This document shows, piece after piece, positions 18,127 to 58,629 of a stretch of DNA of 64,000 nucleotides. Source of the stretch: a virus; IMG/VR virus record IMGVR_UViG_3300035670_000099, positions 29,612 through 93,611 of that record. The stretch is one strand, 5' to 3'. The notes beneath the pieces were generated by a model. The model had not been told where the DNA came from. It was given only the letters and a program-made list of their open reading frames with translations, and made no database searches. Positions within the stretch are counted from its first letter, which is position 1, and each line of letters begins with the position of its first letter. The translations under genes and the position numbers were made by a program.

Positions 18127-18129
18127 TCT

Positions 18130-18136
18130 TGGCAAC
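18130..18136 (+). promoter_or_regulatory. Putative late promoter element TGGCAAC
   Basis: 35 nt upstream of ATG 18165. Confidence 0.5.
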
Positions 18137-19145: not shown

Positions 19146-19156
19146 GAGAATGAATC

Positions 19157-19942: not shown

Positions 19943-19970
19943 TATGGCTTACTAAAAGCTAGGGGGATAA

Positions 19971-39837: not shown

Positions 39838-39868
39838 TTTTTTGCTCCCTAGCTGCTCTTAAATAAAA

Positions 39869-39875
39869 GTTGCCA
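39869..39875 (-). promoter_or_regulatory. Putative late promoter element TGGCAAC
   Basis: 38 nt upstream of ATG 39837. Confidence 0.45.
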
Positions 39876-39877
39876 AT

Positions 39878-42800
39878 CTATCTTTTAAGTATTCCACCCT
39901 GTCTTTGTTGACGTTGTATTTCTACTATTACTGCTGTTTTAATAGCATTCTGCATCGCATTTGGATCTATAGACGGTGATTTGTCACCATCTTGACTTTC
40001 AATCGTTATAGGCACATTTACAGTTGTATTTGTTGTTGGTTGATTAATATTTCCTATTCCAGGAGATGGGGGAATAACTCCACCACTTGCAAAGTTCATT
40101 ATGTTTCTTACTTTTAATTCGCTATTGCTTACGTTACCTCCCATGGCGTAATTCATTACAGATTCAATATTGTTGTTTTTAATTACTTTATCTAATCCCA
40201 TCGACTGGAACTTAGCATTGTCAGCAACACTCAACACTCTTTCTCCTGGCGTTAATACTGCTACTACTGGTGTTATTCCTCCATTTGCAGCTTTTTCTCT
40301 GACAATCGCTTCATTTAATGATTGAATTATGCCTCCACCAGCATAGTTCTTGATTACTCCTCCTTTGTATTGGCTGAATACTTCGCCTCCATCGTTGGCA
40401 CTTGGAACTTCGCCGCCGCTATTTCCTCCAAATATTCCTCCAATTGATTTGAATAGTGAATCAAGAATCCCTCCTGCTCCTACTAATGACTGCATTAATG
40501 ATTTGATAGCTATGTTAATGAGTCCGCTCAGCATGTTTCTAGCTAGGTTGTTTAAGACATCGTCTAGTTTTTCAACACCCATTATTACGTCTGTAAGCCC
40601 AGCTGATAAATCATTGATTAAACTATTTCTTATTAAATCTCTTATAGAAGCTACTACACTTTTGGCTGAATTTTCAATTTCTTTAATTTCTGCATCACGT
40701 TTTGCTTTAGCTTCTTCTTTTTTTTCTTTTTTTTGTTGATCGTCAAGATTTGGATCATTTTCTATATCTTCTTTTTCTTTTTCATATTCTTTTTCTTTTT
40801 GCTTTATTTTTATATCTCTTTCTTGAGCGTTAGCAACAAATTCGTTACCTCCTGAATTTCTGTAATTTTGTATTGTAAGTAATTTAGTTTGTATTTTTGA
40901 CTCTTCAAAACGTTTTGTTTGTTCGTAATCTAAATTTTCTTTTTGTATCTTTGCCAGTCCCTCTACTGCTCTTGTTAAACGATCTTTTTCTTCTTGTGGT
41001 AAAACAGCTGTTTGAATTTTTTCTTTTAAATCAAGTACTCTTAAATCAATATTTAATTTTTCAATAGTTTGATCTTTACCAAAAGCTTCAGCTTCAAGTA
41101 TTTTTAAATTTGTTTTATCTTTATTTGTTTGAATTTCATTTAATGTTGTTTCAATAATTGCCTGTGTATTGTTATTTTGTTTTTGTTTATCACGAATACT
41201 TTCGGCTTTTTTAACTTCTTCTGCTATCTTGTCTTGAGTTAGCCCAGAAGTACTCAAACTAACTTTGATTTTTTCTTGTAAAAATTGAATTTCAGCTTGC
41301 TGATCATTAATTTTTCGTTTTAATGCTGTAATATCATTTAAGGTAGTTAAAATTTTATCTTGTTTTTCTGGGTCTTGTTTAATTGATTCTAATTCTTTTT
41401 CTTTTTGATTTAATGAGCGTTGATAGCTTTCTAATGCTCTTTCAAGTTCCTGTTTTTGCTTTTCATCAGGAGTAACTTTTCTATTTTGTGACACATTTTG
41501 ATTAACTCGTATTCTAGCTTGATCTAATTTTTTTTGTAATTCAGGAAGTTTGCTATTAATAATATTTAACCTTTCTTGAGCTTTTGATTTTGACGATTGT
41601 AAAGCATCGTTCATTTCTTTTATTAAATTACTACCGTCATTTCTTGAAATAAGTCCTTCTTTAACTTGACCTTCTATAGTTTTTCTGTATCTTTCAAAAA
41701 TTGCATCAATTGATTTTAATGCGCTAAATAAATTTGTTTTTTCAGTAGTTAATTTTTTAACAGATTCTTTAGCAGAATCAAGATCTGATTTACTTTGTTC
41801 AATTATTGATTGTGATTCAAATGATGTATTATTATTTATGATTTTATCTAAATCTTGCGTAATTTTGTCTATTTCTGATTGCTTATTTGTAATTGAATCT
41901 TCTTGTAAAATATTATCTTTTATTTTTTTTATTTGATCTTCAAGATTCTGTCTCAATAATCTAGCATCTTCCAATTGCTGTTTTTTTCTTTCAGCGTCTA
42001 AAGCTTGTTGTTGTTGAGTAACTAAATCTTGCGAAATATTTAAAGGTTGATTTGAAACAGGTATTTTTATCGTTGAATTTGTAGATACAGATGTTAATCC
42101 TGGCATTGAACCCTGGAATCCTGTTGTTGGATTTGAATGTGAACACAAACATTTTGTTGCTGAATCTAAAATAGATATTATTTTTGTTACTAAAATTAAA
42201 AGTGGATCTCCTGTTGCTGTTGTATTTGAAACAGGTATTGCACTTGCTGTATTTGCAGGTATTGTTATTGCTGTATTTGAAACAGGTATTGCACTTGCTG
42301 TATTTGCAGGTGTTGTTATTGCTGTATTTGAAACAGGTATTGCACTTGCTGTATTTGCAGGTGTACCTGTTCCTTGCAATATTTTAACTATGTCTAAAAC
42401 AAGCTTTTTCGCTTCAATCTGAGAATTATTTAAAAATCTATTTGCATACTTTTTCTCATCTTCTGTTATTATTGCATTTAAAGGGGTTTTTGTTTTATCT
42501 GAAGGTACAGGTTTTCTTGTTTTTTGTGTTTTATTTGGAGGAGCAAAAACATCATCTAAAGATTCATCAAAAAGATAACTTAAAAAATTAAATACTTCTT
42601 TTTCTGTTATTTTTGTATCTAAAACAGGTTTTGTTTTTTGTGTTTTATTTGGAGGAGCAAAAAAATCATCTAAAGATTTATCATAAAGATAACTTAAAAA
42701 ATTAAATGCTTCTTTTTCTGTTATTAATCCTATTTTTTTCAAATTATCAATTATTGGAGGAGTAAGAGTAACAGAGTTTGTTGGAAGCACAAGTTCTTGT

Positions 42801-45800
42801 TTTGATGTTAATCCTGCTTTTTGCAATTCATTTCCTAATTTAAGAATTGATTGAGAATCGAGGCTATTTACAGAACGTAAATTTAATTTTCTTAAAGTTG
42901 GAACTATTTGTTTTGAATGCTGAGGAATCCGATTACTTTCTTGTTTATTTAAAAAATAATTTTCAAGAATATTTAATGGAGTTCCAACTACATCACCAAT
43001 TACGCCACCAATTACAGGTATTCTAGATCCAAAATTTTTAGCGTGGTCTCCAAAATTTAATTTTTCTCTTTCTTCATTTCTTTTTTTAACTGCTTCTAAA
43101 GTAAAATGCCTTTTTTCTTTTTCAGGCATGCCATAATTAGTAGTTTTTGCATTATTATATTTAGGATTATTTAAGAAATCAACTATTTGATTATAACTTG
43201 ATCTTTGTATTACATTTAAAAATATCTGTTCAACATTTGGATTTATTGGTGAACTTCTGTAATTAGAAATATTTCTAAGCCTATTATACATAGCCTCTTC
43301 TGTTTTTAGGCGCTCTTCTAAAGTCGGATTATCATCATGAGGAATTGCTTGATATCTTAATGGCTTAGATTTAGGTTTGAGAAAACCAAGTGCTATTTCG
43401 TTTTCGTTATTTTTTCTAAAATTTATGTAATCTTTAGGATTTAAACGATTTGAAGAATTAAAAGACGAAGAAGTATTACCACGTTCATATCCAATTAAAT
43501 TCAAAGAAGCTGAAGCTATTTTTACTCCTTGATTAAATCCTGTGTTATTATTAGCAATTTGAATAGAAGAAGGATTGGAAACATGACTAGGTCTTATTGA
43601 AGGTAAAATATTTCCAGGCAAATTATTATTAGGAGTGTTTTGCCTATTCGATTGAACAGAGATAGTAACTATTTTGCTAGATCCAATGTTTGATAAATAA
43701 TTTTTTATTAAAGCAAATTTATAAACACTGTCACTTAAATTTCTGTTTAAAGATAATACACCCGATCCTAATCGATTCATTGATTTTCCTGTTTTATCAA
43801 CTGATTCTTCAATATAAGATACTTGTTTATTGGTAAATTTCATCTCTTTTCTAAGTCTTTCTAATTCTTTGAATGATTCTTCAAATAATTTTTTAAAAGT
43901 AGCAGTAGATTGTTGAGCAAAATTTTTAATAGCATTTACATTTTCATTTGCTGATTTACCTAATAATTGAATAGCTTCGCTAAGTTTACGTTTATCTTCA
44001 ATGTCTTTGCGAGCATCTTCTAAAGCTTTTTGCTCTTGTTGTATTTTTTCTAAAGCTAATTCATTTATTTCAGTAATAAATTCTGAGACAACTTGTGCTA
44101 ATTGTGTTAATTCATTGTCTCCCATTCCTTTAAGTAATAATTTTAATGTTTTACCAGAGAACCTATTGTTAAGCTCTATTACTGCTTTTCTTAATTCAAA
44201 TCTTGCATCTTCAATTTGTTTTTGTACAGCTAGATTATAATCTTCTATTTGTTTTTTAGCGTCTTTAATTTTGTTTCTTAAATCTAAATTAGCTTTGCTG
44301 ATATCAACAGATGCTTTTGATCTATCAACTTTTGCTTTATTTATTTCTTTCTGTAATTCTTCTATCCTTTCTTTGTCTGACTCTCCTAGCTCAGACGAAG
44401 GTATTGAATTTAATAAATTTAAGGCTTGTGTTTTAGTTTTTATTTCATTATCAATAGCATCAAAAGTTTTATTTAGTTGATTTATTTTTAAATTCAACAA
44501 TTGAATATCAGCATCAGATTGAGATATAGTACCTTTATCTAAATTTTTGTAAATTTCTGCTTCTTTTTCATTAGATTCTATTTCAAGCTCTTGAAGATAT
44601 TCATCATAAGCTTTTGTAAATTTATTTAAATTACTAACAATTTTTGTGTATCTAGATTCAATCTCTGGTATAGCTCCTTTAGGTAAAAGATCTTTGTATT
44701 GTTTAGAAAAAGTATCAATTTTTTTTATTAACTCATCAAAAAAGCTACCAACCTTAAATCCTGGAAAAAGCTTTTCCGCTAGTTCCTTTTGTTTTATTAA
44801 AGTTTCTTTAACATTTTCTAATTCTTTGTATTTAGAACTATATCTTGATATAATAGATTGTTTTTCCTTTTCAATATTTGAATACTCTTTATCTATTCGG
44901 TCTATTTCTTTTTCATCATTTGATTCAAATGCTTTTTGTCTTTTCTCGCTTAATTCTTTTTGTTTATTTATTAATTTATTTATTTTTGTTTTATCTTGAG
45001 AAAAGTTTGAATCTTTATCTTGATTGTATTTCTTTAACTCTTTAATATTATCTTCAACTTCTTTGAAAAGATCTTTCTCAATACTATCTTTTAACTCAAG
45101 CATGTTATTTAAAAACATTTTTACTGATTCAAGAGCATCATAATCAGTATCGCGTACAATTGTTCCATACATTCCAAGTTCTTTTGCTATTTTTATTTGG
45201 TTCTTAGTATAAACTTTAGGTTTGTTTTCATCATTAGCTCCTATGTCAACTTGACGTTTAAAACTACCATATCCTTTGTCAAACCAAGTAAGGGGCTGAT
45301 AAGTAGAGCCTAAGTTTCCTCTTTCAACTTGTTCGTCATAATAGTCTTTAAGCTGCTCTGGACTCATTTTCCCTGATTTTACTAAATGAGCAGCGTAATT
45401 TATACGCTTTCTACGTTCATCTTCTACGTACGATTCTTCTTCTCCTTGAACTCCAATTACAACAAATGGATTTAATTGAAAGCCTTTACTAGGAATTGAT
45501 TGATAAGCAGAAAAGTTTGGTTTATTTCCTTTTGTTTTTTTAAGCTCATTATTAAAATCACGAAAAGCATTTGCAGCATTTTCAATACTTTTTGATATAT
45601 CATTAAATCCTTCTTTAAAAGGAACAGAAAAATCAGCTGCAGATAAAAATAAAGTACCAAAAGTAATTGCTAATGATGCTGCTCCTTTCGCTAAAGATCC
45701 AATTGAAATTTTAATTTTTTTAATAGATGTTAATCCAATTGTAATGAAAGTACTAAAAAAAGCAGATCCTAATTTTATTACAGCAGGAATTGCTTGGCTT

Positions 45801-48800
45801 AAAATAATAGATGCCATTTTAGATAAAAACTGTATTATTGTGTGAACAGCAGTTACTGTAAATATTCCTTTAAAAGCACCACCTAAAAAGCTAAATACTG
45901 GACTTATAGATTTAGCAAATTCTTTAAAAGTATTTAAAACAGGCTTTAAAGAAATACTTAAATATTCACTAATAAAACTAAAAGCATTTGTAATGATTTT
46001 AAGTGGATTTCGTCCACCAAAAAATTCATTTAATCCATTATGAAAAGCTGCACCTGAAGCTATTCCAATGATTTTAAATGTAGATGGAAAACTTGTTTGA
46101 AGAACTGCTATCACCCCTTTTAAAGAAGTAGACGCTGCTAAAGAAGCAGTGATTCCTGAAAAAATAGCAGGAGCGATTAATAAAGCAATTCCAGCAATTG
46201 CTATACTAAGTATAATAGCTGCGGAAGTGACTCCTTTTATAGCATTTGTAAGAATAGAGAAGCTGTCAGCAATATTAATAATTGCTTTAGGTATTATTCC
46301 AATCAATAATTCAAAAGAATCAATAATATGTAGTACTGCTTCAGTTCCAATGTTTTGCAGTTTTGTCAATGTTATTGCCAACCCACTTGCATTTTGCGCT
46401 GAGCCTTCGTATCTAGCTCTTAATATTTTGCCAACATTAGGTAATATATCAGCAGAAAGAATAGCACCTTGGCTTGTTAAATCAATTAACTCAGGAATTG
46501 TTTTGCCTATAGCCTGAGCAAAAATTTCCATCGCTGGAGGGAATTTTTCTCCTAATTGCTGTCTTAATTCTTCCATAGATAACTTACCTTTCGCCAATAT
46601 TTGAGTATAAGCAAGTAATATGTAAGTTACGTCTTTTCCTGTGATACCTAATGCATTTATGGATGAAGCAATTCCTTTATATAAATCTTGAATACCTTGC
46701 CCTTCTAGTTTTGTATTTTGCGCAGCTGCAAGTAATTGTCCATAAGCTTCTAATCCATCTGATATCGATACGTTGTATTGCTTAGATGCGTTAATTGCAA
46801 AATCAATTTCTTTTCCGCTTTTTGCTTCTCCTACAATAGAATTAATTTTTCTCAACGAAGGCTCTAATTTTATTATTTCTTCTCCAAGAGCAATTATTTT
46901 ATCAGTCAAGATAGACATAAAATCAGAAATATTGTAAAAAACATTAGTTAATGGGGAGAAAGTATCATCAATAGTATTTCCTAATTCTATTAAAGGAGAA
47001 ATTGCATTATGAAATTCTTCTCCAGCAATTTTAGCTAATCCATTAATTTCAGTAAGTTTGTTAATACCTTCAGATAATTTTTCTGGATCTGGTAAACTAG
47101 CTTCTTTTATGTCATCTACTATCTCTGAATGAACACTTGCATCAGGAGCTGAAATAGCTTGAAATTCTGTATAATCTTCAGTCGTTACTAAATTTATTTT
47201 AGTTTCTTCGCTTTCAATAGGATCTGTATACTGCTCTATTTCAACTTGTCCACCTTCTAATAAGATTTTAAAATTCCTAAGCTTTATTTCTTTTTCTTCT
47301 TCTGATAAATCAGGATGCTCAATAATTGCTTTAATTTCTTTTCTTATATTTTGCTGTGTATATTGACTAAATTCTGCTTTAATATCAAATTTTTGTTCTT
47401 TTTTAATTTTTTTATCTAATTCTTTTTCTAATTTATTTTTTTGATTTTTTAATTCTTCAATTTTCTTTTTCGCTTTATTTTCTTCTTTTGTTATTTCATT
47501 GTTCAATGCTTCACTTCTCGCTCTTAACGATTGAATCATTTCTGCACTAGCTTTTTGATCTGAGCCTTGTATAATATCTTTTTCGTAATCACTCAAATCT
47601 TTTAATTTTAATGCTGCTTCTTTTCTTTTGTCAATTAATTCTTCTTCTGTATTTTTAATTGCATTTACTTTATCTTGTATATTATCAAGTTCTTTTCCAT
47701 ATGTTTCACTTAATTTTGCAAATTTATCTATTCTTGATGCGTTTTGGTAATCTTTTTCTGCTTGCATTGCTTCTTTTTCTGCTTGTTTTATTTCTTCTTC
47801 TAATCTTGCAATTGATGCTTTATTCTCTTTTATTTGTTCTTCATATTTTTGCTTTTGCTCTTTGCCTATTTTACCTTTTTGTCTGTTTGTACGTTCATTT
47901 TGAAGACTTTTAAGTTCTGCCTGTGTTTGTTTAATCTCTTTGTCGTCGCGAGTTTTTTGTTCTTTTGTATATCCTCTACGACGTTCGTCAAAATCAAGGC
48001 GATTCATTTTTTCAACCAATTTATCTCTTTTTTCCTGTATTTCTTTTCTTTCTTCAATGTCTTCAGGTAATGTACGTCCAAACTCTTCTTCTAGTATTCG
48101 GTCTTCATCCTCAAGTTTCTTAATTTCATTATTAATAAATTCATCAAAATTTTTATTTTTTATTTTTTTATTTTCTTTTAATTCTCGAAGTTTGTTTATA
48201 AGATTTTCTATATTTTCGTCTAATTCTTTTTCTTCTTTTACTGTGAAATTTCTTTCGTTTTTTGCGTTTACTTTTTTTATTTCTTCTTCAATGTTATCAA
48301 GCTCTGCTTCTAAATTCTCTATTAATTTTATCTTTTCTTTAAGGTTTTCTATTTTAGCAGTGTCTGGATCAAAAGAAGATTCTTCAAATTCTAAAAGCTC
48401 TCTAAGCTCTGCTTTGTTTCCAGTACTTAATTCTAAATGAAGTTTTTTTTCTGTTTCTTTTCTTTCTTTCTCATATCCTTCGAGTTCTTTTTTATATCCT
48501 CTTCTTTCTTTGCTTGTTACATCTGTTTTTAAAAATTCTAATTGTTCATTTTTTCTTTTTAAATCTATTATTTTGTCTTCATTTTCTGCTTTTATAGATT
48601 CTTTTTCGTCTTTTTTTGATTCTTTTTTTCTTTCCAATGCTTCTGTATCATTAAATCTTATTTGATTTTGTTTTTTTAAAATTTCTTTATTAACTCTTTC
48701 ATTCATGCTATTAAGTTCTGCTTCTTTCTTTGCTATTTCTTTATCTAATCGTTCAAGTTCTTTTTTCTTGGATTCCTCCGCAGTAGTTTCATTTTTTTTA

Positions 48801-51800: not shown

Positions 51801-54800
51801 GCAATTAATTTTTTCTGATTAAAAACAAAATCTATAATTTTATTTTCAGTTTGTCCTAATCCTTTAAGTTCATTCTCAAATGCTTCTAAAACATCTAAAG
51901 CATCACTAGGATTAAGTTTGTCTAAATATATTTTTTGGAATTTAAGTATTACTGTTTTTGTTTTATTGATTATTTTTTCAATATTGCCTTTATAACTTCC
52001 GGATGTATCTTCTTTAGATAATTCAACAGCATTATCAATTATTGACGCAAATGATTTTGCCCATTTTATTACATCTTGTAAAATTATATTTTTATCTGTT
52101 ATAGAAGCATTAAGTATTGTTTCTAACTCTTTTAAGCTTTTTGCTGTTAAAGAATTAGCTTGTTTTTCTAATTCTGCAATTCTTTCATTAATATTTTCAA
52201 CCTCATTACTTTCCAAAGACATTTCTATCTGTGGGTTAGGTTGTTGAGTAACAATAAATTGTTTTTTAGACTCAGTTGATTTAGATGAATCGATTGTTTT
52301 TTTAGATAATTGGGATGAATCTTGCGTAACATTAGCATACTCTAATTGTTTAATTTGTGGTAATTCAATTTTTATATTATTAACTTTTTTAGCTGCTGCT
52401 TCTAATTTTTCCAAAGATTCCGTTAATTGTTTTATTAAATTATTTAAATTACTAAAGCTTTCTAAATTATATTTAATATTAATTTCATTATTATTTAAGC
52501 ATTTTTGAGTATCTTTAGCTGCCTCACAAATTAAATGAATATTATCCGCAATTTCCTTAGAATTAGTGCCAACAGATAATTTAAAGTTAAATTCATTTAA
52601 TGCTTGTTTAATTAAATTTAAAGATTCGTTGACAGAATTTAACAAACTTGCATCATCAATTTTTATTTCAGCTTTTAATAAATTAAGTTTTTTGTTAATT
52701 TTTTCTGCTAAATCATCAGCCGCAAAAGGAACTGATTTTAATGATTCTTCAAATTTACTTAAATCTACATTGATTTCAATTAAATTTACAGTATTAAAGT
52801 TTTCTAATATTAAATTAGAGATTTTTCTAAGATCTCCAGCTAAAGACTCTGCTTCTTTAACAGTTATCTCTATTTCATAATTTTTGTCAAAGTTGCTAAG
52901 ATTTTGAATTACATTAGATGTTAATTCTTGCAATTGTCTAAAAGAATCAATATTCTTGATATCAAGACTTAGATTCTCAAATTGATTTAAAAGATTTTTT
53001 AGAGATTCTATATTTCTAGCTATAGTAGTAGAATCATTTACAAATGTCTTGAGATCAGTCAAATAACTCTTGACTTGATTCATCCCTTGAGTAAAATTAA
53101 CTAAAGATGCGTCAACGTCTGCTAAATTAGATTTTACTTGTTCTTTTTGTGTTGAAGTGCCTGTTGATTCATTTAATGCTTGGTGTCCAGAAATTACATT
53201 TCTAACATTATCTGCAAGTGATGTTATTTCTTTCAATTTTTCAATTATTTGATTTGCTTGAATTAAGAAATTACTAGTATCATCAAGCATTCCAATTTTA
53301 ACTTTACTTAAATCAGAAATAGATATTATACTTTCCCTAAGTTCTTCTAACTTAGCTATAAAATCATCTACTACTGGAATGCCTTTTAAATCTATATTTA
53401 TGTCAGAATCGAAAGTATTCTTAATGCTTTTTGCGGTATTATCTAATAATTGTAAAATTTCACTTAAATTATTTAAATCTGGAGTTTGATTAATTACAAT
53501 ATTTAAAGGAGTTTTTAAATTAGCAGTTAAACTTTTAACATTTTTATCAATTTCTTTTACTGCTTCATTAACAGACTGTAAATGCGTTGTTATACTTGTT
53601 TGATTTACAGCTTCCAAATCTAATTTATATTGGCGTAATGCTTCCCCTATAGCTGATATACTAGAAGTCACTTTTTGTGCTGATTGTTCATCTACTCCAA
53701 ATACAACTTTATTATCTAAAACACATTGATTATTTTCTTTTACTACTTCACAAATACTGTTAACTTGGTTAATTATTTCATTTAAATTTTGCAAATTAAC
53801 ATTAATAGATAAAATATTATTGTTTAAAATACTCTGTAAATTTGTCAATAACTCTGTCAATCTTTCGATAGCAGATTGCCTATTGATTTGAAAATCTAAA
53901 TTAATTGATTGATTATTTGTTGCTTCTTCAATATTTAAATTTTGGAGGCTATTAATTTTTTGCTGTATATTTTCTGTTAAAGTATTGATTTGATTAGCAT
54001 TAATTTTTACATTAAATTCTTCTGCTAATTTATTTTTTAAATTATCTAATACTTGAATTAAATTGTTTAAACTATTTTGAGATCTGTCAGCAGAGGATTG
54101 AATATGTCCTAAAGACTCAACGGCATTTCCTATCTGTAAATTCAAAACTTTGCTATTAACAACTTGAGTAACAGAATCAAGTAAAGAATTAACTTCATTT
54201 AATACTGTATTTGAAACATTAAAATCAATAACAACTTTATTATCATTTTTATTTATTTCATCTTGGCATTCTTTAATAATTGCTTTAATTTGAGATTCGG
54301 CAGCAGAATTAACTGCAACTTGTATAGTAATGTTTCCACTAATTTGTAAAGAATTTAATGTTGCTACTAAAGCATTAATTTGCTCTCTAAGAGCATTTGG
54401 ATTATCTCCACTAAAAGAAATATTAATACTAGATAAATTATTTTGGTTAAGTTGAATTATTGCATTAATTAAATTGTTAACAGATTCAATCCCGCCAGAA
54501 ATTTGAGTATCATCTAATTCTGGAACAGCTATTTTTATAGCAGAAAGTGCATCAGCGCCTTCTCTTAATTGATCAGAAATAATTTGAATTTTTGAAGTAA
54601 TATTTACTTCATCTAAATTGGTTAAATCAATTTTAGCAATAAATACATTAGAATTAGCAGATTCTATTGCTTGCTTATATGTATCTAATTTTAATATTAT
54701 ATTGTTTATTAACAAATCTAAAGAAGAGATTGAATTATCGTCAAAATTTATTTTAAATACATTATCGTTTAAATACTTTTTAATTCCTTTTATTGATTCA

Positions 54801-57800
54801 AGTATTTTAGTAATCTGCTCAATTGCTTCTTCAGGATTATTTACAGATATATTATATTCTAAATCATTGTCATCAATTAATTCTTGTAGATTATTTAAAA
54901 GATTTAAAAGTGCTGCCCTAGCATTTTCTGATTCAGGATTAAGTTGTACATTCAATGCTTGCAATTGAATGTTATCCAATACATCACTAACAGCGTTTAA
55001 AGGATTATTTATTTCTGTAGTAATATTAATTTTTTTATCATTAATTTCTTGAATTTTATTATTTACAAAATTACTAAAATCGTTAATTTTATTTTCTGCT
55101 GCTTTTAAAGATTCTTCAAAATTTTCATTATTAACATCTAAGTTAGAAATAATATTAAATAATACTGGAACAGATGCACTTGCTTTTAATTCATTAATTT
55201 TTTGAGTAGCATTTTCTATTGCTTTAATACTAGATACTAACTCTGTAGTATCAATAGATAAATTATTTTTTAAATTATTTATTTTAATTAAAATTTCATC
55301 AATTTTTAAAATTAAATTTTCATAATCAGAAAAATTAACATCTATATTATATTCTAAATCTAAAATTTGTTTAAGATCGTTTAATATTTTTGTTAAACTA
55401 GCAATTTTTTTATTATTTTCTTCAACAGCATTAGCATTAGCAGTAGCAGTAGCGGTAAAATTAGAAAAGTCACCATCGACAAAAGCAGCAATTCTTATAT
55501 CAGAAAGATCCGCAATAGTTCTTTGAATAAGAGATTTAAAACTTTCTAAGTTAGCTATAGAAAGAGTAATTCCTACAGGAGTTTTTTGTAATTCAGATCT
55601 AAATCTGTTAACTATATCTTGAGATTGCTCTAAAACATCAGCAGAAAGGTATGCTCTAATTTCTACAACTCCACTTAAAGCTAATCCAGCTAAGCTATTA
55701 TTGATTTGTTCAATATTTTCAGAATAATTAGATATATCAGATCTAAAGAAAATATTAATTTCTACTGTTTTATTATTATTTAAATTCTCAATAGTTTCTG
55801 TTAAATTATCAATGGATTGTTTAGTAGAATCTAAATTTTCTGTATTAACAGGTCTTATATTAAGTGTAATATTTTCCAGCTCTTGTTTTTTTGCTTTTAC
55901 AACTTCACATACTTCGTTAATAGCATTAGAAATATTATCTTTATCAATTTCATTAAGATTTATTCTTACAACTAAAGTATTGCTATCTAAATACTGCTGA
56001 GTCTGTTCTACTTGATTACGTACTTCAGAAGTATTGATTTCTATTGGTTTATTATTAATTTCTGTATTAATTTCATCTATTTTAGATTCGATACTATTTT
56101 TAAATGTATTCAAAGAATTTAATAAATCAGCACCAATATCTTCTGAAGCATTAATGTTGATGCTTTGAGTTTTAGTAGATTGCAGTAATTCTAAAGAATT
56201 TATTACATTATTTATTTGTTCAACAATTTGATTTAAATTTTGATTCTGTGTTGTTATCGAAATTTCTACATCTTTAACTTCAATAAGTTGATTTAATAGA
56301 TTTCTTAAATTATTAATATCTTCAATCAAGGAAGAAGTATTTAATTCATTTATATTAAGATTGATAGAATTATTAGAAAAATATTCAATAGCATCATTTA
56401 GGATATTCTTAACTCCTCCTAACTCAGTAACTAATTTTTGCGCATTAACGTCAAAATCAACAGTAGTTTTTTGATTATCAACTTCGCTAGATTGAGTAGG
56501 AGTAGCATTTAATGATTTTAATTTAACTTGTATATTTTCTATTGCAGTATCTAATTGAGATATAGCATTTTCGATTGAACTTTGATTTATCGATAAAGAT
56601 ATTTCATTATCTAATTTTCCTTTAATTTCATCTAACTTTGTGCTTAAATTATTTATAGAAGTTTGAGCTAAATTACTATCATTAGAAGTGTCATTTAATG
56701 CTGCATTTAATTTATTTATTTCCTCTTCAACTTGAATAATAATATTTCTTAATGAATTTAAGTTATTTGATATATTGTTTATATTTACGTAAGATTCTTC
56801 TGATATATTAAATTGAATTTGTTTTTCTGATAAATTATTTAAAATACCATTTAAATTATTAACAATATCGCTAAAACTATCTTCTAATTCTTTTAATTTG
56901 TTTTTAATATTAGTAACAACAGCTAAATCTGCATTATCTGAAACTTCACTAAAAATAGTAGCAAAACTTGTTTTTATTTCTTGAATATCATTTCTTAAAA
57001 TATTAATAAAATCATTATTTATTTGTATTTGAATAGTTTTATCATTTGTTGAAATAGCTTCATCAAGGTTAAGATTGCTTAAATTATAAACAATATTTAC
57101 TGCGTGAGGATTTTGTTTTATTGCATTTATTCTTTGCTCTATATTTGTTAAATTAGTATCATTTACCTTAATATCTAATATTAAATTATTAACAATATTA
57201 AAAATATTTGTTAAATCTTGTATAAGTTTCTTTACATTAGCCTGCGAATCTGGATTTATTTGTAAAGAAATCGCCGAAGAACTGTAATGCGCTATTAAAT
57301 TATTTAGATCGTTTTTTAAGCCTGATAAATTATTTTTTAAATTATTGATATTATCTAAATTTACAACAGGAGTAATTCTACCAGAATCAAAAGTATTTAT
57401 TGTTTCCAATAAAACGTTTTCGGCTTTTTCTAAATCATCTTTTATTTCTTCAATATTAGATGAATCAATTAAAACTTTTGCTTCAATTGTTTTATCTTTG
57501 GAACCAGAAGATTGAGATTCTCCTTTTCCTTGGATAATAGCTTTTCCTCCTGTAAAGACTCTTCTTAGTCTTTCTATTGATGTATTTATGCCAGATCTAA
57601 TAGCTGGTCCAAGACTTTGCGTTATTTGCCCTAATTTGCCAAAGCTATTTAAAAGCAAATTAGGAAGTTGATTTAATCCTAGCGAATTTGCATTTCCTTC
57701 TCTATTTTCTTTGCTAGAACGATTAGATGCAGTTTTTTCTTTATTGCGTTCAACAATACTACTAGTAACTTGCGACGTGTTAGATGATTTAGTTGTTACA

Positions 57801-58585
57801 TTTTGCTGAATATTAATATTTTGTTTTTCTGTAAATGCTCTGCGCAATGCATTACTAGTAGACGATTTAATAACTGATTCAATTGCTGACGATGTATTTG
57901 TTAACCCATTTCTAATTCCTTCCGTTAATCCTAACTCAATTGATAAAGAGACTAATTGTTTTGTTTTTTCTACGCTATTTTTATCAATTAAAAAAGATAC
58001 TGGTATTTCATAAGAATTAGAAGTTAAATCATCTAATTGTTTATTTAAATTATCTAATGCAGAAGAATCAACTCTAGGCTTAATAGGATTTGAAGCAAAA
58101 TAATTATTAACTTCTTTAGAATGTTGTACTTTTTTGTCTAAATGTTGATTTAAATCATCTAATTCAGAATCGTCTACAGTTGCCTTAACTGCAACGAGAG
58201 AGCCTAACAAAGTAAATGATCTTATTCTTTTTTCTAAATTATTTAATTCAGAATCATCTACATTTACTTCGATATTAACAATTTTGTTTATCAAAGCAAG
58301 CGACTTTATTCTTTTTTCTAAATTATTTAATTCAGAATCATTTACTTTTATTTTTATTGAATTGTCGTTATAATATTTAATAGTTGTATCTAAATGCTTT
58401 TCTGCGGTTTTTAATTCTTTTGCTAAATTATTAAAGCTTGCTTTATTTGCAGAAATATTAGCTTCTAAATCTAATCCAAGAGAATCTTTAGATTTACTTA
58501 TATTTGATTGAATATCTTTAATTTGTTTTTGAAAATTACTTGTATCTAATGACAGCTTAACAATTAATTCACCTAATGTAGTCAT
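39878..58585 (-). CDS. Giant tape measure protein (6235 aa) with internal JAB-like cassette
   Basis: N-term MTTLGELIVKLSLDTSNF; tape-measure motif QILAKGKLSMEELRQQLGEKFP near 46560; hydrophobic region ~45650-46350; gpH-like C-term YAGGG..LTPGERVL..FASGG..QRQGGIL. Confidence 0.9.
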   Translation of the reverse strand: MTTLGELIVKLSLDTSNFQKQIKDIQSNISKSKDSLGLDLEANISANKASFNNLAKELKTAEKHLDTTIKYYNDNSIKIKVNDSELNNLEKRIKSLALINKIVNIEVNVDDSELNNLEKRIRSFTLLGSLVAVKATVDDSELDDLNQHLDKKVQHSKEVNNYFASNPIKPRVDSSALDNLNKQLDDLTSNSYEIPVSFLIDKNSVEKTKQLVSLSIELGLTEGIRNGLTNTSSAIESVIKSSTSNALRRAFTEKQNINIQQNVTTKSSNTSQVTSSIVERNKEKTASNRSSKENREGNANSLGLNQLPNLLLNSFGKLGQITQSLGPAIRSGINTSIERLRRVFTGGKAIIQGKGESQSSGSKDKTIEAKVLIDSSNIEEIKDDLEKAENVLLETINTFDSGRITPVVNLDNINNLKNNLSGLKNDLNNLIAHYSSSAISLQINPDSQANVKKLIQDLTNIFNIVNNLILDIKVNDTNLTNIEQRINAIKQNPHAVNIVYNLSNLNLDEAISTNDKTIQIQINNDFINILRNDIQEIKTSFATIFSEVSDNADLAVVTNIKNKLKELEDSFSDIVNNLNGILNNLSEKQIQFNISEESYVNINNISNNLNSLRNIIIQVEEEINKLNAALNDTSNDSNLAQTSINNLSTKLDEIKGKLDNEISLSINQSSIENAISQLDTAIENIQVKLKSLNATPTQSSEVDNQKTTVDFDVNAQKLVTELGGVKNILNDAIEYFSNNSINLNINELNTSSLIEDINNLRNLLNQLIEVKDVEISITTQNQNLNQIVEQINNVINSLELLQSTKTQSININASEDIGADLLNSLNTFKNSIESKIDEINTEINNKPIEINTSEVRNQVEQTQQYLDSNTLVVRINLNEIDKDNISNAINEVCEVVKAKKQELENITLNIRPVNTENLDSTKQSIDNLTETIENLNNNKTVEINIFFRSDISNYSENIEQINNSLAGLALSGVVEIRAYLSADVLEQSQDIVNRFRSELQKTPVGITLSIANLESFKSLIQRTIADLSDIRIAAFVDGDFSNFTATATANANAVEENNKKIASLTKILNDLKQILDLEYNIDVNFSDYENLILKIDEILIKINNLKNNLSIDTTELVSSIKAIENATQKINELKASASVPVLFNIISNLDVNNENFEESLKAAENKINDFSNFVNNKIQEINDKKINITTEINNPLNAVSDVLDNIQLQALNVQLNPESENARAALLNLLNNLQELIDDNDLEYNISVNNPEEAIEQITKILESIKGIKKYLNDNVFKINFDDNSISSLDLLINNIILKLDTYKQAIESANSNVFIAKIDLTNLDEVNITSKIQIISDQLREGADALSAIKIAVPELDDTQISGGIESVNNLINAIIQLNQNNLSSINISFSGDNPNALREQINALVATLNSLQISGNITIQVAVNSAAESQIKAIIKECQDEINKNDNKVVIDFNVSNTVLNEVNSLLDSVTQVVNSKVLNLQIGNAVESLGHIQSSADRSQNSLNNLIQVLDNLKNKLAEEFNVKINANQINTLTENIQQKINSLQNLNIEEATNNQSINLDFQINRQSAIERLTELLTNLQSILNNNILSINVNLQNLNEIINQVNSICEVVKENNQCVLDNKVVFGVDEQSAQKVTSSISAIGEALRQYKLDLEAVNQTSITTHLQSVNEAVKEIDKNVKSLTANLKTPLNIVINQTPDLNNLSEILQLLDNTAKSIKNTFDSDINIDLKGIPVVDDFIAKLEELRESIISISDLSKVKIGMLDDTSNFLIQANQIIEKLKEITSLADNVRNVISGHQALNESTGTSTQKEQVKSNLADVDASLVNFTQGMNQVKSYLTDLKTFVNDSTTIARNIESLKNLLNQFENLSLDIKNIDSFRQLQELTSNVIQNLSNFDKNYEIEITVKEAESLAGDLRKISNLILENFNTVNLIEINVDLSKFEESLKSVPFAADDLAEKINKKLNLLKAEIKIDDASLLNSVNESLNLIKQALNEFNFKLSVGTNSKEIADNIHLICEAAKDTQKCLNNNEINIKYNLESFSNLNNLIKQLTESLEKLEAAAKKVNNIKIELPQIKQLEYANVTQDSSQLSKKTIDSSKSTESKKQFIVTQQPNPQIEMSLESNEVENINERIAELEKQANSLTAKSLKELETILNASITDKNIILQDVIKWAKSFASIIDNAVELSKEDTSGSYKGNIEKIINKTKTVILKFQKIYLDKLNPSDALDVLEAFENELKGLGQTENKIIDFVFNQKKLIASINKIASKLPTTNSSTRLDDILNQSLNLKNIAKSINPTKPENLATKYKEKLTKIQQEIIESIQKTGGVDPATINESINKALNAIEKTITNKIANSGKKIDTSFIDTFKQELINNVSDANKAISSQGLDFIYNYIKNTANVASMQDADIPSTPNQQFLQDDFIKITNLYKEVNDTFIQQIKEILPKIQSLNIDAEVFALLKTLSKYIKDNVLDVKNKLESTSESYKTAYSSTPQQSRQINQSKASAIEGIDDSYKNVGKNIVDTFESQIALLDDESIKDEFKKVLQGIKDVFGIASPAKKIIEVAVNITKTFFDSIKNGFKAGRLIIDNIIQGLFRQFGEIKDIPDHLFDLNIAKPELGEFRKLEDYIEIYKHLREELLTDENQKRELDDYSKAGKLNFINPRQNLDKIQNPYNSKKIDDIRNEKLEDVIGIIMNSRGQIIEEFNIAKERSEKYVQFDSDKLFLKIYEAARKSNDKIFYSVAHNHPNFAKKGYAPRNSVITSQQDHNSIGLMKILLQLSAKIKRSEGHKPIHMKPLPEIVVAGKGTALFDGKDSWIPAITSNLKRFEKIYSQEELDKLYKQFQSDFDFYFKTLIKKYKDNDELLVDIKELREKMSLYSRKEFNNLLAKMYKDKLVNFKELEKSGIHDAGARTNYLLQVTTAPVNPKVGKDGKRNLASERTGIAEAVQLTPKAIKQNLIQNPIDYVIDDSYKNIGKNIVDTFESQIASIDNQVIKNAFEGVLKIIKKVFGIASPSTELRDVGYNVVHSYSNSVVAELAVVTHAIGKAFLNTINPSIIIKKAKETGEKVAEIREEIKKLEDKRLEKQGELESELTGLREEKIRVESISHDTSSAVLEKQASKNKKIKETEKAVSKLNEEKARIEGLTVFSEVKKKERDREIENQKKIARQPISDLEKERREISANKKLNEEDKKERIQSINQKIREKSLEVEKEIQKLEEQKQLSISEKDKTAKIEKINKQIKQKELESKKELLRLDKEITALKKNETTAEESKKKELERLDKEIAKKEAELNSMNERVNKEILKKQNQIRFNDTEALERKKESKKDEKESIKAENEDKIIDLKRKNEQLEFLKTDVTSKERRGYKKELEGYEKERKETEKKLHLELSTGNKAELRELLEFEESSFDPDTAKIENLKEKIKLIENLEAELDNIEEEIKKVNAKNERNFTVKEEKELDENIENLINKLRELKENKKIKNKNFDEFINNEIKKLEDEDRILEEEFGRTLPEDIEERKEIQEKRDKLVEKMNRLDFDERRRGYTKEQKTRDDKEIKQTQAELKSLQNERTNRQKGKIGKEQKQKYEEQIKENKASIARLEEEIKQAEKEAMQAEKDYQNASRIDKFAKLSETYGKELDNIQDKVNAIKNTEEELIDKRKEAALKLKDLSDYEKDIIQGSDQKASAEMIQSLRARSEALNNEITKEENKAKKKIEELKNQKNKLEKELDKKIKKEQKFDIKAEFSQYTQQNIRKEIKAIIEHPDLSEEEKEIKLRNFKILLEGGQVEIEQYTDPIESEETKINLVTTEDYTEFQAISAPDASVHSEIVDDIKEASLPDPEKLSEGINKLTEINGLAKIAGEEFHNAISPLIELGNTIDDTFSPLTNVFYNISDFMSILTDKIIALGEEIIKLEPSLRKINSIVGEAKSGKEIDFAINASKQYNVSISDGLEAYGQLLAAAQNTKLEGQGIQDLYKGIASSINALGITGKDVTYILLAYTQILAKGKLSMEELRQQLGEKFPPAMEIFAQAIGKTIPELIDLTSQGAILSADILPNVGKILRARYEGSAQNASGLAITLTKLQNIGTEAVLHIIDSFELLIGIIPKAIINIADSFSILTNAIKGVTSAAIILSIAIAGIALLIAPAIFSGITASLAASTSLKGVIAVLQTSFPSTFKIIGIASGAAFHNGLNEFFGGRNPLKIITNAFSFISEYLSISLKPVLNTFKEFAKSISPVFSFLGGAFKGIFTVTAVHTIIQFLSKMASIILSQAIPAVIKLGSAFFSTFITIGLTSIKKIKISIGSLAKGAASLAITFGTLFLSAADFSVPFKEGFNDISKSIENAANAFRDFNNELKKTKGNKPNFSAYQSIPSKGFQLNPFVVIGVQGEEESYVEDERRKRINYAAHLVKSGKMSPEQLKDYYDEQVERGNLGSTYQPLTWFDKGYGSFKRQVDIGANDENKPKVYTKNQIKIAKELGMYGTIVRDTDYDALESVKMFLNNMLELKDSIEKDLFKEVEDNIKELKKYNQDKDSNFSQDKTKINKLINKQKELSEKRQKAFESNDEKEIDRIDKEYSNIEKEKQSIISRYSSKYKELENVKETLIKQKELAEKLFPGFKVGSFFDELIKKIDTFSKQYKDLLPKGAIPEIESRYTKIVSNLNKFTKAYDEYLQELEIESNEKEAEIYKNLDKGTISQSDADIQLLNLKINQLNKTFDAIDNEIKTKTQALNLLNSIPSSELGESDKERIEELQKEINKAKVDRSKASVDISKANLDLRNKIKDAKKQIEDYNLAVQKQIEDARFELRKAVIELNNRFSGKTLKLLLKGMGDNELTQLAQVVSEFITEINELALEKIQQEQKALEDARKDIEDKRKLSEAIQLLGKSANENVNAIKNFAQQSTATFKKLFEESFKELERLRKEMKFTNKQVSYIEESVDKTGKSMNRLGSGVLSLNRNLSDSVYKFALIKNYLSNIGSSKIVTISVQSNRQNTPNNNLPGNILPSIRPSHVSNPSSIQIANNNTGFNQGVKIASASLNLIGYERGNTSSSFNSSNRLNPKDYINFRKNNENEIALGFLKPKSKPLRYQAIPHDDNPTLEERLKTEEAMYNRLRNISNYRSSPINPNVEQIFLNVIQRSSYNQIVDFLNNPKYNNAKTTNYGMPEKEKRHFTLEAVKKRNEEREKLNFGDHAKNFGSRIPVIGGVIGDVVGTPLNILENYFLNKQESNRIPQHSKQIVPTLRKLNLRSVNSLDSQSILKLGNELQKAGLTSKQELVLPTNSVTLTPPIIDNLKKIGLITEKEAFNFLSYLYDKSLDDFFAPPNKTQKTKPVLDTKITEKEVFNFLSYLFDESLDDVFAPPNKTQKTRKPVPSDKTKTPLNAIITEDEKKYANRFLNNSQIEAKKLVLDIVKILQGTGTPANTASAIPVSNTAITTPANTASAIPVSNTAITIPANTASAIPVSNTTATGDPLLILVTKIISILDSATKCLCSHSNPTTGFQGSMPGLTSVSTNSTIKIPVSNQPLNISQDLVTQQQQALDAERKKQQLEDARLLRQNLEDQIKKIKDNILQEDSITNKQSEIDKITQDLDKIINNNTSFESQSIIEQSKSDLDSAKESVKKLTTEKTNLFSALKSIDAIFERYRKTIEGQVKEGLISRNDGSNLIKEMNDALQSSKSKAQERLNIINSKLPELQKKLDQARIRVNQNVSQNRKVTPDEKQKQELERALESYQRSLNQKEKELESIKQDPEKQDKILTTLNDITALKRKINDQQAEIQFLQEKIKVSLSTSGLTQDKIAEEVKKAESIRDKQKQNNNTQAIIETTLNEIQTNKDKTNLKILEAEAFGKDQTIEKLNIDLRVLDLKEKIQTAVLPQEEKDRLTRAVEGLAKIQKENLDYEQTKRFEESKIQTKLLTIQNYRNSGGNEFVANAQERDIKIKQKEKEYEKEKEDIENDPNLDDQQKKEKKEEAKAKRDAEIKEIENSAKSVVASIRDLIRNSLINDLSAGLTDVIMGVEKLDDVLNNLARNMLSGLINIAIKSLMQSLVGAGGILDSLFKSIGGIFGGNSGGEVPSANDGGEVFSQYKGGVIKNYAGGGIIQSLNEAIVREKAANGGITPVVAVLTPGERVLSVADNAKFQSMGLDKVIKNNNIESVMNYAMGGNVSNSELKVRNIMNFASGGVIPPSPGIGNINQPTTNTTVNVPITIESQDGDKSPSIDPNAMQNAIKTAVIVEIQRQQRQGGILKR
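42222..42362 (-). repeat. About 3 x 51-bp coding tandem repeat (PANTASAIPVSNTAIT) in the tape measure gene
   Basis: Units start at 42222, 42273 and 42324. Confidence 0.9.
42510..42725 (-). repeat. 2 x ~115-bp coding duplication (ITEKExFNFLSYLxDxSLDDxFAPPNKTQKT)
   Basis: Near-identical at DNA and protein level. Confidence 0.85.
49545..51055 (-). repeat. Direct repeats 1368 bp apart flanking the JAB-like cassette
   Basis: GGCTTTCAAAAGTATCTACAATATTTTTACCAA at 49633 and 51001; GGAGAAGCTATACCAAATAC at 49545 and 50913. Confidence 0.85.
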
Positions 58586-58612
58586 AATTAAACACCAATC
58601 TATATATTAAGT

Positions 58613-58619
58613 GTTGCCA
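58613..58619 (-). promoter_or_regulatory. Putative late promoter element TGGCAAC
   Basis: 34 nt upstream of the tape measure ATG. Confidence 0.5.
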
Positions 58620-58629
58620 AAACAAAATA

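Follow-up and report, generated by a model that had tools for sequence, protein, structure and literature searches.

A 6,235-residue tape measure protein with an internal, probably helical expansion in an uncultured relative of phages CrV-01T and Cr-LKS4

A single gene of 18.7 kb in an uncultured virus encodes a protein of 6,235 amino acids whose domain content marks it as a genuine tape measure protein (TMP). The gene lies in a 64,000-nucleotide stretch of DNA (the window) from a 93.6-kb IMG/VR phage record, a metagenome assembly in which ~10% of the genome is missing. The protein belongs to the TMP family of the Cylindrospermopsis phages CrV-01T (4,416 aa) and Cr-LKS4 (2,987 aa). On balance, we favor the explanation that it is the single TMP of a non-contractile-tailed relative of these phages, that it acts as a ruler over its full length, that it is a long, exchangeable allele, and that it carries a probable JAB domain as a passenger.

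In both the ORF list and the translation, the gene starts with ATG and runs without interruption through 6,235 codons to a stop. An earlier note on this DNA had described an ORF of this size as more AT-rich than its surroundings, and the gene is 24-30% GC compared to 33-39% elsewhere in the window. An open frame of 18.7 kb at 27% GC rules out a chance origin. The GC content at third codon positions (GC3) is 11.5%, compared to 16-31% in 13 other genes, so the AT-richness is not purely an amino acid effect. A second, independent record (G001) is 93-98% identical in DNA and contains an intact, collinear ortholog of 6,256 aa. The frame stays open across the 13 indels that separate the two genes, and the ortholog also has the direct repeat and the cassette described below. 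The window gene is thus neither a chimera nor a pseudogene, and the assembly chimera that the earlier note had raised is excluded by this ortholog. When 24 kb were compared by megablast with 50,697 phage records, no near-identical known phage came up, and an Rfam scan of the gene found no intron or other RNA element. The gene and its parts are as follows (positions are those of the window).

39878..58585 (-): whole TMP gene, 6,235 codons plus stop; the only TMP_3 match, with an ortholog in G001
58613..58620 (-): TTGGCAAC motif, candidate late promoter, 27 nt ahead of the TMP ATG
57836..58585 (-): N-terminus, MTTLGELIVKLSLD... followed by 28-aa repeats, aa 1-250; the family-wide start
51056..57835 (-): Asn/Ile/Leu-rich helical spacer, aa 251-2510, marked by composition, hydrophobic period and dN/dS
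50855..51055 (-): first copy of the '...VFGIASP' module, aa 2511-2577, in the direct repeat
49688..50854 (-): lineage-specific cassette, aa 2578-2966, with a probable RadC-like JAB core at ~aa 2680-2775 and HNHP at 50345-50356
49421..49687 (-): second copy of the GIASP module, aa 2967-3055, the copy common to relatives (BLASTP)
47006..49420 (-): Lys/Glu-rich helical stretch, aa 3056-3860, 42-52% charged residues
46334..46900 (-): tape-measure domain, aa 3896-4084, Pfam TMP_3 with TIGR02675 inside
45734..46333 (-): hydrophobic membrane-type block, aa 4085-4284, Kyte-Doolittle peak of 2.73 at aa 4115-4154
43586..45733 (-): conserved helical body, aa 4285-5000, phrog_2335 over aa 4001-4863, period 3.6 (z 10)
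40886..43585 (-): variable region, aa 5001-5900, Pro/Thr-rich tandem repeats and then a coil; second hot-spot at ~aa 5200-5700
39881..40885 (-): Gly-rich gpH-like C-terminal domain, aa 5901-6235 (hhalign, phrog_339, RcGTA_tape)

The repeats near the N-terminus are 84 nt long at 58046-58353, and the tandem repeats of the variable region lie at 42221-42364 and 42517-42725.

Assignment as a TMP is based on several profiles. Pfam TMP_3 matches aa 3896-4084 with 63 bits (cut-off 41), TIGR02675 matches aa 3976-4045 with 46.9 bits (cut-off 21.35), and nine PHROG tape-measure families match, with a best E of 1.6e-26. No other gene in the 93.6-kb record matches TMP_3. The domain order proposed in the earlier note, a tape motif near residue 4000 followed by a hydrophobic block and a gpH-like end, is borne out: the hydrophobic block directly follows TMP_3 and is conserved family-wide together with the core, and the C-terminus aligns with the last 204 aa of lambda gpH (hhalign probability 96%, E 2.3e-9). 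The C-terminal domain also matches phrog_339 and RcGTA_tape. As in all relatives, the tape-measure domain with its membrane block is set ~2,350 residues back from the C-terminus. At the other end, the N-terminal start is common to 25 of the 28 family members inspected, and the family profile aligns with residues 5-50 of lambda gpH (hhalign probability 65%, E 6e-5). The earlier note had counted ~3900 residues ahead of the canonical motif. The position of the domain agrees with this, but the N-terminal add-on that it implied does not hold. Because the protein opens at residue 1 with a canonical TMP start, the added residues are an internal expansion, namely a spacer of amphipathic-helix type between the N-terminus and the tape-measure domain.

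The length of the protein is at the top of the family range and is not a one-off. Among ~50 IMG/VR relatives, TMP lengths form an unbroken series between ~3,000 and 6,256 aa, in which three unrelated members have 6,123-6,228 aa. The earlier note's proviso that relatives might make this length routine thus turned out to be half true, since the protein still exceeds the 5,002-5,006 aa of the longest TMPs in studied phages by ~25% (PMC10770324). Length variation falls almost wholly ahead of the tape-measure domain. The part from this domain to the end (the C-part) is ~2,000-2,800 aa across members, and the part ahead of it (the N-part) is 981-3,861 aa. In G004 (6,228 aa) and L024 (4,505 aa), the last 3,039 aa are 86% identical. 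The N-parts of G002, G003, and G004 are 3,346-3,562 aa long and cannot be aligned with that of the window protein, which suggests that length is kept and sequence is not. By BLASTP, P0004, P0006-P0009, G002, and G004 each have a single GIASP module. A tblastn search of the TMP core against a plasmid collection found no cyanobacterial match.

The N-part has the character of a helical spacer. Asn, Ile, and Leu abound in residues 1-2500, where Pro (34) and Gly (53) are scarce, and the quasi-repeats that the earlier note had seen there are present, though weak (24-35% identical in aa 251-2510). Among the spacer features, Pro plus Gly come to 4.1%. The hydrophobic period of aa 251-2510 is 3.4-3.7 residues (z 6-13 versus shuffles), and a period in this range also covers aa 3056-5000 and 5501-5900. 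In total, it spans ~4,600 residues, with helicity read from periodicity alone. The N-parts of 10 relatives have it as well (z 4.6-27). The Lys/Glu coiled coil that had been placed at ~47350-49400 corresponds to the Lys/Glu-rich stretch at 47006-49420, which is 98.6% identical to G001 and has a hydrophobic period of 3.5 (z 5.8). Residues 4373-5000 are 99.7% identical to G001. The dN/dS compared to G001, a pairwise estimate from two sequences, is ~0.27 over aa 1-2000, a strong shortage of replacements (p ~2e-13); aa 251-2000 alone give 0.28, and aa 2001-2510 give 0.51. Profile searches with aa 251-2510 found no family match and no enzyme family ahead of the cassette. An RNA polymerase cargo, as in phage P23-45, was considered and rejected, as the single DxDxD is at aa 4479, outside the N-part. 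HExxH is absent.

The surroundings of the gene support a non-contractile-tailed phage because no sheath gene was found in the 93.6-kb record, while the record does contain tandem tube paralogs and tip genes that resemble lambda J, K, and tail-assembly genes. The neighbours of the TMP gene are thyA on one side and a gp065 homolog on the other; the tube genes are ~19 kb away and the tip genes 7 kb. This is not the classical TMP position, which is after a frameshifted chaperone pair and tube gene and before the tip genes. A G/GT-type chaperone was not identified, and the TMP gene adjoins neither chaperone nor tube genes, which counts against our preferred explanation. The TMP genes of CrV-01T and Cr-LKS4 sit in a similarly detached position, and the order TMP, gp065 homolog, dCTP deaminase is common with CrV. 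The TTGGCAAC motif occurs in six copies in the window, including those before the TMP gene, the downstream gene (39869-39876), and the first tail-tube paralog (18129-18136). It is absent inside the TMP gene, and a shorter isoform from an internal promoter was therefore rejected.

The body of the TMP gene appears to have been exchanged on a phage backbone. Over window 17000-40630, tail-tube and tip genes included, the DNA of record G007 is 96-98% identical, yet its TMP has 4,453 aa and a GC3 of 25%. The junction is at ~40630 (aa ~5985), and L008 and L009 are 97-98% identical at the nucleotide level from 40630 downward only. The GC3 of the C-terminal domain (aa 5901-6235) is 20.9%, and the codon composition of the long allele, with its GC3 of 11.5%, is foreign. 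A similar exchange separates Cr-LKS4 and CrV-01T, where flanking genes are 99-100% identical and the TMPs are 2,987 and 4,416 aa; portal and tail-tube genes are 99.6-100% identical (PMC10811720 Table S8). As part of the overall explanation, and with the same moderate confidence, we regard the TMP body as an exchangeable allele. A long, AT-rich allele would have recombined onto a backbone that carries the 4,453-aa allele in another record, and the last ~250 residues, which would need to fit the resident tip proteins, would have been retained. The ruler would need no matching change in other tail genes, and for this reason the gene body could behave as an exchangeable allele. This would be a structural protein acting as such an allele, with a junction whose position leaves the tip-binding end together with its partners.

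The spacer is interrupted by a cassette of 389 aa (aa 2578-2966) flanked by two direct-repeat copies. The repeat is 177 nt long and 82% identical, and its spacing of 1,368 nt is 456 codons, in frame. The metal site of JAB peptidases has the general motif E...HxHx7Sx2D, and the G001 cassette has exactly the canonical HNHPNKAVGASQGD. The window cassette keeps the H, H, S, and D with 16 residues in place of 7, due to a 9-aa insert inside the motif. The cassette probably carries a RadC-like JAB core. The JAB cassette of the earlier note is in place and its label is probable, but profile scores fall short of the threshold: the G001 cassette scores 21.6 bits against Pfam RadC (E 2e-4), below the cut-off of 22.1, and the window copy had no match in Pfam, NCBIfam, or six-frame RadC and Prok-JAB searches. 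Across the genome, Prok-JAB matched just one gene, the lambda-K-like tail gene at 27503-28273. No homolog of the cassette turned up when 1.84 billion representatives were searched exhaustively with HMMER, and PDB sequence searches gave no JAB match. The only PDB match under E 0.01, the GTPase YPT6 (E 8e-4), is read as chance. The language-model neighbours of the cassette are RadC clusters (0.80-0.86), which we take as a lead only, and AlphaFold models were uninformative (pLDDT of 36 from a single sequence and 40 from a two-sequence alignment). Replacements are concentrated in two hot-spots, ~aa 2500-3060, which includes the cassette, and ~aa 5200-5700. Compared to G001, dN/dS is ~2 for the cassette and 1.3-3.5 for the variable region, where most of the indels are located. 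Within the spacer, the cassette would be a passenger that acts as an ejected effector or as a maturation protease, and it would evolve under diversifying selection. Such signs of diversifying selection are the pattern expected of a host-interaction factor.

The earlier note had offered two alternatives, a tail near 0.9 micrometre or a protein of which only part acts as ruler; both are sound, and the evidence favors the first. Such a tail might, as that note also put forward, serve to cross a thick sheath or mucilage. Most likely, the whole protein acts as the ruler, with a predicted tail of ~0.9-1.1 micrometre. As in lambda, a few TMP copies would be fixed to the tip complex through their C-termini, with the tube polymerising around them until the N-terminus is reached. 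All 6,235 residues would then set the length, at ~0.15-0.18 nm per residue. At infection, the TMP would be ejected ahead of the DNA, and the hydrophobic block would form a conduit. In the accessible literature, which did not include the original papers, a published tail length of CrV-01T or Cr-LKS4 was not found.

Further features count against a ruler of full length. The tape-measure domain is normally near the N-terminus of TMPs, as reflected in the name of the NCBIfam model TIGR02675, tape_meas_nterm, and the ~1,500 residues that lack the helical period (aa 1-250, the cassette, aa 5001-5500, and the C-terminus) would contribute less tail length. The ruler might instead be only the C-terminal ~2,350 residues, giving a tail of ~0.35-0.45 micrometre, with the 3,860-residue N-part ejected as a passenger. 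The N-part could then be a helical tether or conduit extension that spans a thick envelope, or it could bear effector modules such as the JAB cassette, and it might be released by proteolysis. A nearly constant C-part behind an N-part of such variable length is also what a constant ruler with variable cargo would give, the N-part contains what is probably a JAB peptidase, and the N-terminal ~1,100 residues of P23-45 gp96 are a functional virion RNA polymerase (PMC10770324). However, the length of the P23-45 tail is credited to the full 5,002 residues, cargo included (PMC10770324). Outside the cassette, the N-part has no enzyme-like domain and resembles a uniform helical spacer. Moreover, the gpH-type start is found at residue 1 whatever the length of the protein, which fits an end-to-end ruler, the N-parts of unrelated members have come to similar lengths although their sequences do not resemble one another, and no internal promoter motif was found. 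A ruler confined to the C-part is therefore the less likely reading, at somewhat better than one chance in four.

The internal direct repeat invites two other explanations, both of which we consider very improbable. It could mark the join of two TMP segments in a frame that is an artefact, either an assembly chimera of two tape-measure genes or a decaying, unused gene. The composition of the gene is unlike that of the backbone, and the record is a metagenome assembly. The G001 ortholog argues against this, as its collinearity extends to the repeat and cassette and its 13 indels are frame-neutral, and so do the purifying selection on the N-part and the relatives of 6,123-6,228 aa with matching architecture. 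The shift in composition is explained by the natural recombination junction common to L008 and L009. The repeat pair can also be read as the template and variable region of a diversity-generating retroelement, whose mutagenesis, and not selection, would have produced the hot-spots. The replacements are clustered, with few silent changes and many transversions, but they are not adenine-specific. The variable tracts of 0.5-1.7 kb are far above the usual size of a target region, both repeat copies are coding, and no reverse transcriptase is present in the 93.6-kb record.

The full-length ruler that we prefer can be set beside known systems. CrV-01T (MH636380, gp064) and Cr-LKS4 (OQ625504, g67) have TMPs of the same family. 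The N-terminus and GIASP module are common to them and the window protein, identity is 30-37% in the tape-measure domain and membrane block and 30-34% in the C-terminal domain, and the TMP body is likewise swapped on a near-identical backbone. The window TMP exceeds theirs by 1,800-3,250 residues, which all precede the tape-measure domain, and is far more AT-rich, with a duplicated GIASP module and the cassette. Its gene has thyA upstream, where the isolates have a small ORF. The Thermus phages P74-26 and P23-45 also have giant TMPs and non-contractile tails, and the TMP gene occupies a similar ~18-20% of the genome. The P74-26 TMP is 5,006 aa, and its tail of nearly 1 micrometre is the longest known (PMC10034513); the P23-45 TMP, 5,002 aa, "defines the length" of the tail (PMC10770324). 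These proteins, too, contain embedded non-ruler modules, a metallopeptidase and the virion RNA polymerase (PMC10034513; PMC10770324). There is no detectable sequence relationship, however. The Thermus gene follows that of the major tail protein within a classical tail operon, but the window gene stands alone, and the N-part is an enzyme in the Thermus protein and a low-complexity helical spacer in the window protein. Phage Mic1 was reported to have a tail of 400 nm, and its largest ORF encodes 2,572 aa (PMC7156551). The ruler mechanism is borrowed from lambda, whose gpH (853 aa) aligns position for position with the N-terminal start and the last ~110 residues of the window TMP; J- and K-like tip genes are also present in the window phage. 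The window TMP is seven times longer than gpH, has a TMP_3 domain and membrane block in mid-protein, and has no adjacent G/GT chaperone genes.

If the whole protein is a ruler, CrV-like cyanophages may have the longest non-contractile tails, of ~1 micrometre or more, with lengths stepped by swaps of the ruler body and with JAB delivery in addition, a proposal that we make tentatively and put at about one chance in three. The steps would amount to hundreds of nanometres between genomes that are otherwise 96-100% identical (4,453 vs 6,235 aa; 2,987 vs 4,416 aa), and tail length would vary ~two-fold among near-identical phages. With one backbone and two rulers, CrV-01T and Cr-LKS4 are a natural test pair. 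The ruler would also carry into the cell a JAB peptidase that evolves fast. Under this proposal, tail length would be a trait that evolves quickly and is exchanged horizontally, perhaps in keeping with how thick the host sheath or envelope is.

The tape measure protein (TMP) of this phage is encoded by one uninterrupted ORF of 6,235 codons with an ATG start (window 39878-58585, minus strand). The 64-kb window forms the right-hand end of an IMG/VR virus record of 93,611 bp (CheckV completeness 90%), and the TMP gene makes up 20% of the genome. All elements of the layout described in the earlier note (quasi-repeats, cassette, Lys/Glu stretch, tape motif and hydrophobic block) were found in the protein.

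Features of the TMP, in residues
aa 1-2500 (-): Asn/Ile/Leu-rich part by composition, with Pro and Gly very scarce
aa 2578-2966 (-): cassette of 389 residues, flanked by two copies of a 177-nt repeat
aa 3056-3860 (-): Lys/Glu-rich stretch by composition
aa 3896-4084 (-): Pfam TMP_3 match, 63 bits (cut-off 41)
aa 3976-4045 (-): TIGR02675 match by profile search
aa 4085-4284 (-): hydrophobic block by hydrophobicity
up to aa 6235 (-): Gly-rich C-terminus

Internal repeats within aa 1-2500 are weak (24-35% identity). The C-terminal part contains near-perfect in-frame tandem repeats at window 42221-42364 (51 nt, 2.8 copies) and 42517-42725 (114 nt, 1.8 copies). The AT-richness of the ORF reported from the first reading is confirmed, with a G+C content of 24-30% vs 33-39% in the rest of the window. 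GC3 is 11.5% vs 16-31% in thirteen other genes, and only the final 335 codons of the TMP gene depart from this low value, at 20.9%.

No sheath gene was found in the record, which encodes lambda J-like, K-like and tail-assembly-like genes and tandem major-tail-protein paralogs. This gene content marks the source as a phage with a non-contractile tail and a tip of lambda type. Of the sequenced phages, the nearest are Cylindrospermopsis raciborskii virus CrV-01T and Cylindrospermopsis phage Cr-LKS4, whose annotated TMPs have 4,416 and 2,987 aa. All three share a gene order in which the TMP is followed by a ~220-aa gene and a dCTP deaminase on the opposite strand.

Genes discussed with the TMP, in window coordinates
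18165-20699 (+): tandem major-tail-protein paralogs, two of three matching phrog_820
27503-28273 (-): lambda K-like minor tail protein, phrog_30 match and sub-threshold NlpC/P60
36601-38433 (+): FtsK/SpoIIIE-family ATPase of 610 aa, near the TMP; homolog annotated in Cr-LKS4 (g55)
39187-39837 (-): gp065 homolog directly downstream of the TMP, 48% identity to CrV gp065
58630-60189 (-): ORF directly upstream of the TMP, with a thymidylate-synthase-like region and a C-terminal PterinBD-DUF4346

CrV gp065 has been described as a cyanobacteriochrome-like GAF-fold protein (PMC12481020). The motif TTGGCAAC precedes both the TMP gene and the gp065 homolog. The upstream ORF (58630-60189) overlaps a 207-aa ORF at 60026-60649, and the K-like gene has the sole Prok-JAB profile match in the genome (E 2.9e-5, below cut-off). 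CrV and Cr-LKS4 each possess three gpV-like paralogs, gp028-030 (PMC10811720 Table S8), and tandem tube paralogs may be relevant to assembling a very long tube. A Crocosphaera sp. genome bin (NZ_JASJEB010000008.1) encodes a protein related to the TMP core, 43% identical over ~155 aa; this locus may be a prophage and a pointer to the host range of the TMP family. The window phage likely has a cyanobacterial host.

The gene is intact in a second IMG/VR record (G001, 36 kb) from a different sample. G001 is collinear with window 39100-59000 at 93-98% nucleotide identity and encodes an intact ortholog of 6,256 aa, which rules out the assembly chimera raised as a concern in the earlier note. The two genes differ by 13 indels, with the frame open throughout, and the length differences lie mostly around the tandem repeats at window 42221-42725. 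Over residues 1-2000, dN/dS is ~0.27 at a dS of ~0.05, and replacements fall far below the neutral expectation (p roughly 2e-13). This deficit indicates that the long N-terminal part is maintained coding sequence.

Both ends of the protein are those of a canonical TMP. A common start of the type MNLGELIVELSLD... is found in 25 of 28 family members inspected, at any length, and reads MTTLGELIVKLSLD in the window TMP. The family N-terminal profile matches lambda gpH residues 5-50 in hhalign (probability 65%, E 6e-5). The gpH-like C-terminus proposed earlier is supported by the profile of the last 200 residues, which aligns with the final ~110 residues of gpH up to the last GG-containing motif (probability 96%, E 2.3e-9). 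The canonical start excludes a foreign N-terminal fusion; judged from both ends, the 3,900 residues before the tape-measure domain are an expansion between start and domain.

A survey of a 5.8-billion-protein collection and IMG/VR identified ~50 loci with clear relatives. Complete family genes form a continuum between about 3,000 and 5,846 aa, and three more loci, once extended, gave complete genes of 6,123, 6,125 and 6,228 aa. The suggestion that relatives might make this length routine thus holds in part: members reach 6,123-6,228 aa, but the range starts at about 3,000 aa. These three giants have only the terminal modules and the core in common with the window TMP, plus, in two of the three, the GIASP module. 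Counted from the tape-measure domain onward to the C-terminus, every member has about 2,000-2,800 aa, and the stretch ahead of the domain varies from 981 to 3,861 aa. For example, the 6,228-aa TMP and a 4,505-aa relative (L024) are 86% identical over their final 3,039 residues, and the 1,700 residues by which they differ in length are all in the front part. Hydrophobicity in the front parts of the window TMP and ten relatives recurs strongly every 3.5 residues (z 4.6-27 vs shuffles), and there is no beta-type period. In the window TMP, this period covers ~4,600 residues (aa 251-2510, 3056-5000 and 5501-5900); it was not seen in the cassette, aa 5001-5500 or the C-terminal domain.

The TMP body has been exchanged on a conserved backbone. 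A related 72-kb record, G007, shares 96-98% DNA identity with window 17000-40630, which holds the tube paralogs, tip genes, FtsK-like gene, dCTP deaminase, gp065 homolog and final ~250 TMP codons. From window ~40630 upward (aa ~5985), similarity collapses abruptly within the TMP C-terminal domain, and a further record (L009) has its junction at the same place. The G007 TMP has 4,453 aa, is 37-42% identical to the window TMP in the core and has a backbone-like GC3 of 25%. DNA identity upstream of the TMP gene is just 69%, and each record stops a few kb beyond the gene on that side. With a divergent, lower-GC3 body beginning at this junction, the AT-richness marks an allele of foreign composition that was recombined onto the backbone. 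The position of the junction leaves the resident tip-binding end in place. The two cultured phages resemble the window/G007 pair, as the TMP body differs on near-identical flanks. Cr-LKS4 and CrV-01T are 99-100% identical in the TMP-flanking genes and 99.6-100% in the portal and tail-tube genes (PMC10811720 Table S8), whereas their TMPs have only the final ~295 residues in common (84%).

The cassette is confined to the window/G001 lineage, where it is repeat-flanked in both records; relatives have one GIASP module, about 700-1,400 residues ahead of the core. In the window TMP, the flanking repeats are 82% identical and spaced exactly 456 codons apart, so recombination between them would delete the cassette in frame. 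No homologs were found among 1.84 billion representative proteins. The G001 motif, HNHPNKAVGASQGD, has exact JAMM spacing and its best match is Pfam RadC (E 2e-4), though at 21.6 bits this is below the cut-off of 22.1; the window copy has no Pfam or NCBIfam match and nine additional residues within the motif. RadC clusters are also the language-model neighbours of the cassette, which is no more than a lead. Taken together, these matches make a RadC-like JAB domain probable, and the version in the window may be impaired.

The cassette and its flanks (aa ~2500-3060) form the first of two replacement hot-spots against G001, with a dN/dS of ~2 and a cassette identity of 74.5%. The second spans aa ~5200-5700 (dN/dS 1.3-3.5). 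The tape-measure domain is identical in the two orthologs. In both hot-spots silent changes are very few and transversions make up about half of substitutions; the replacement excess over the neutral fraction of ~0.81 is modest (p ~0.005-0.008, from one sequence pair). No reverse transcriptase was found in the 93,611-bp record. The likeliest reading of these substitutions is diversifying selection on ejected, host-exposed parts of the TMP.

In lambda, the tip complex holds the TMP by its C-terminus and the extended helical protein guides tube growth as far as its N-terminus, giving ~0.15 nm of tail per residue. By analogy, the window TMP would dock its C-terminus in the tip complex, and polymerisation along the extended helical protein would stop at the N-terminus. 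Its 6,235 residues would then predict a tail of roughly 0.9-1.1 micrometre, or ~0.7 micrometre if only the periodic helical segments count. Length scaling is supported by Mic1 (400-nm tail, largest ORF 2,572 aa; PMC7156551), by P74-26 (5,006-aa TMP, tail of nearly 1 micrometre; PMC10034513) and by P23-45, whose 5,002-aa TMP is said to define tail length (PMC10770324).

The near-constant length of the C-terminal part and the variable N-terminal part across the family would also suit a ruler of ~0.35-0.45 micrometre formed by the C-terminal part, with the N-terminal part as an ejected passenger. In P23-45, the N-terminal ~1,100 residues of the giant TMP form a working virion RNA polymerase (PMC10770324). 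However, the N-terminal part of the window TMP has no enzyme-like domain other than the cassette, the protein has no HExxH and a single DxDxD far outside this part, and the candidate late-promoter motif does not occur inside the gene. We regard such a passenger as rather unlikely. It is reasonably probable that spacer length itself is the selected property, with a ruler exchangeable without change in other tail genes. This reading fits the conservation of both ends of the protein and the uniform, helical character of a spacer that purifying selection maintains. It also fits the similar lengths reached by members with dissimilar sequences, and the exchange of alleles while tube and tip genes stay fixed.

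GenBank already lists giant TMPs of the CrV-like family under that annotation, and the window TMP is thus an extreme case of a known type. What deserves note is the allele-swap pattern of the TMP, together with CrV-01T and Cr-LKS4 as an existing pair of isolates for comparison.
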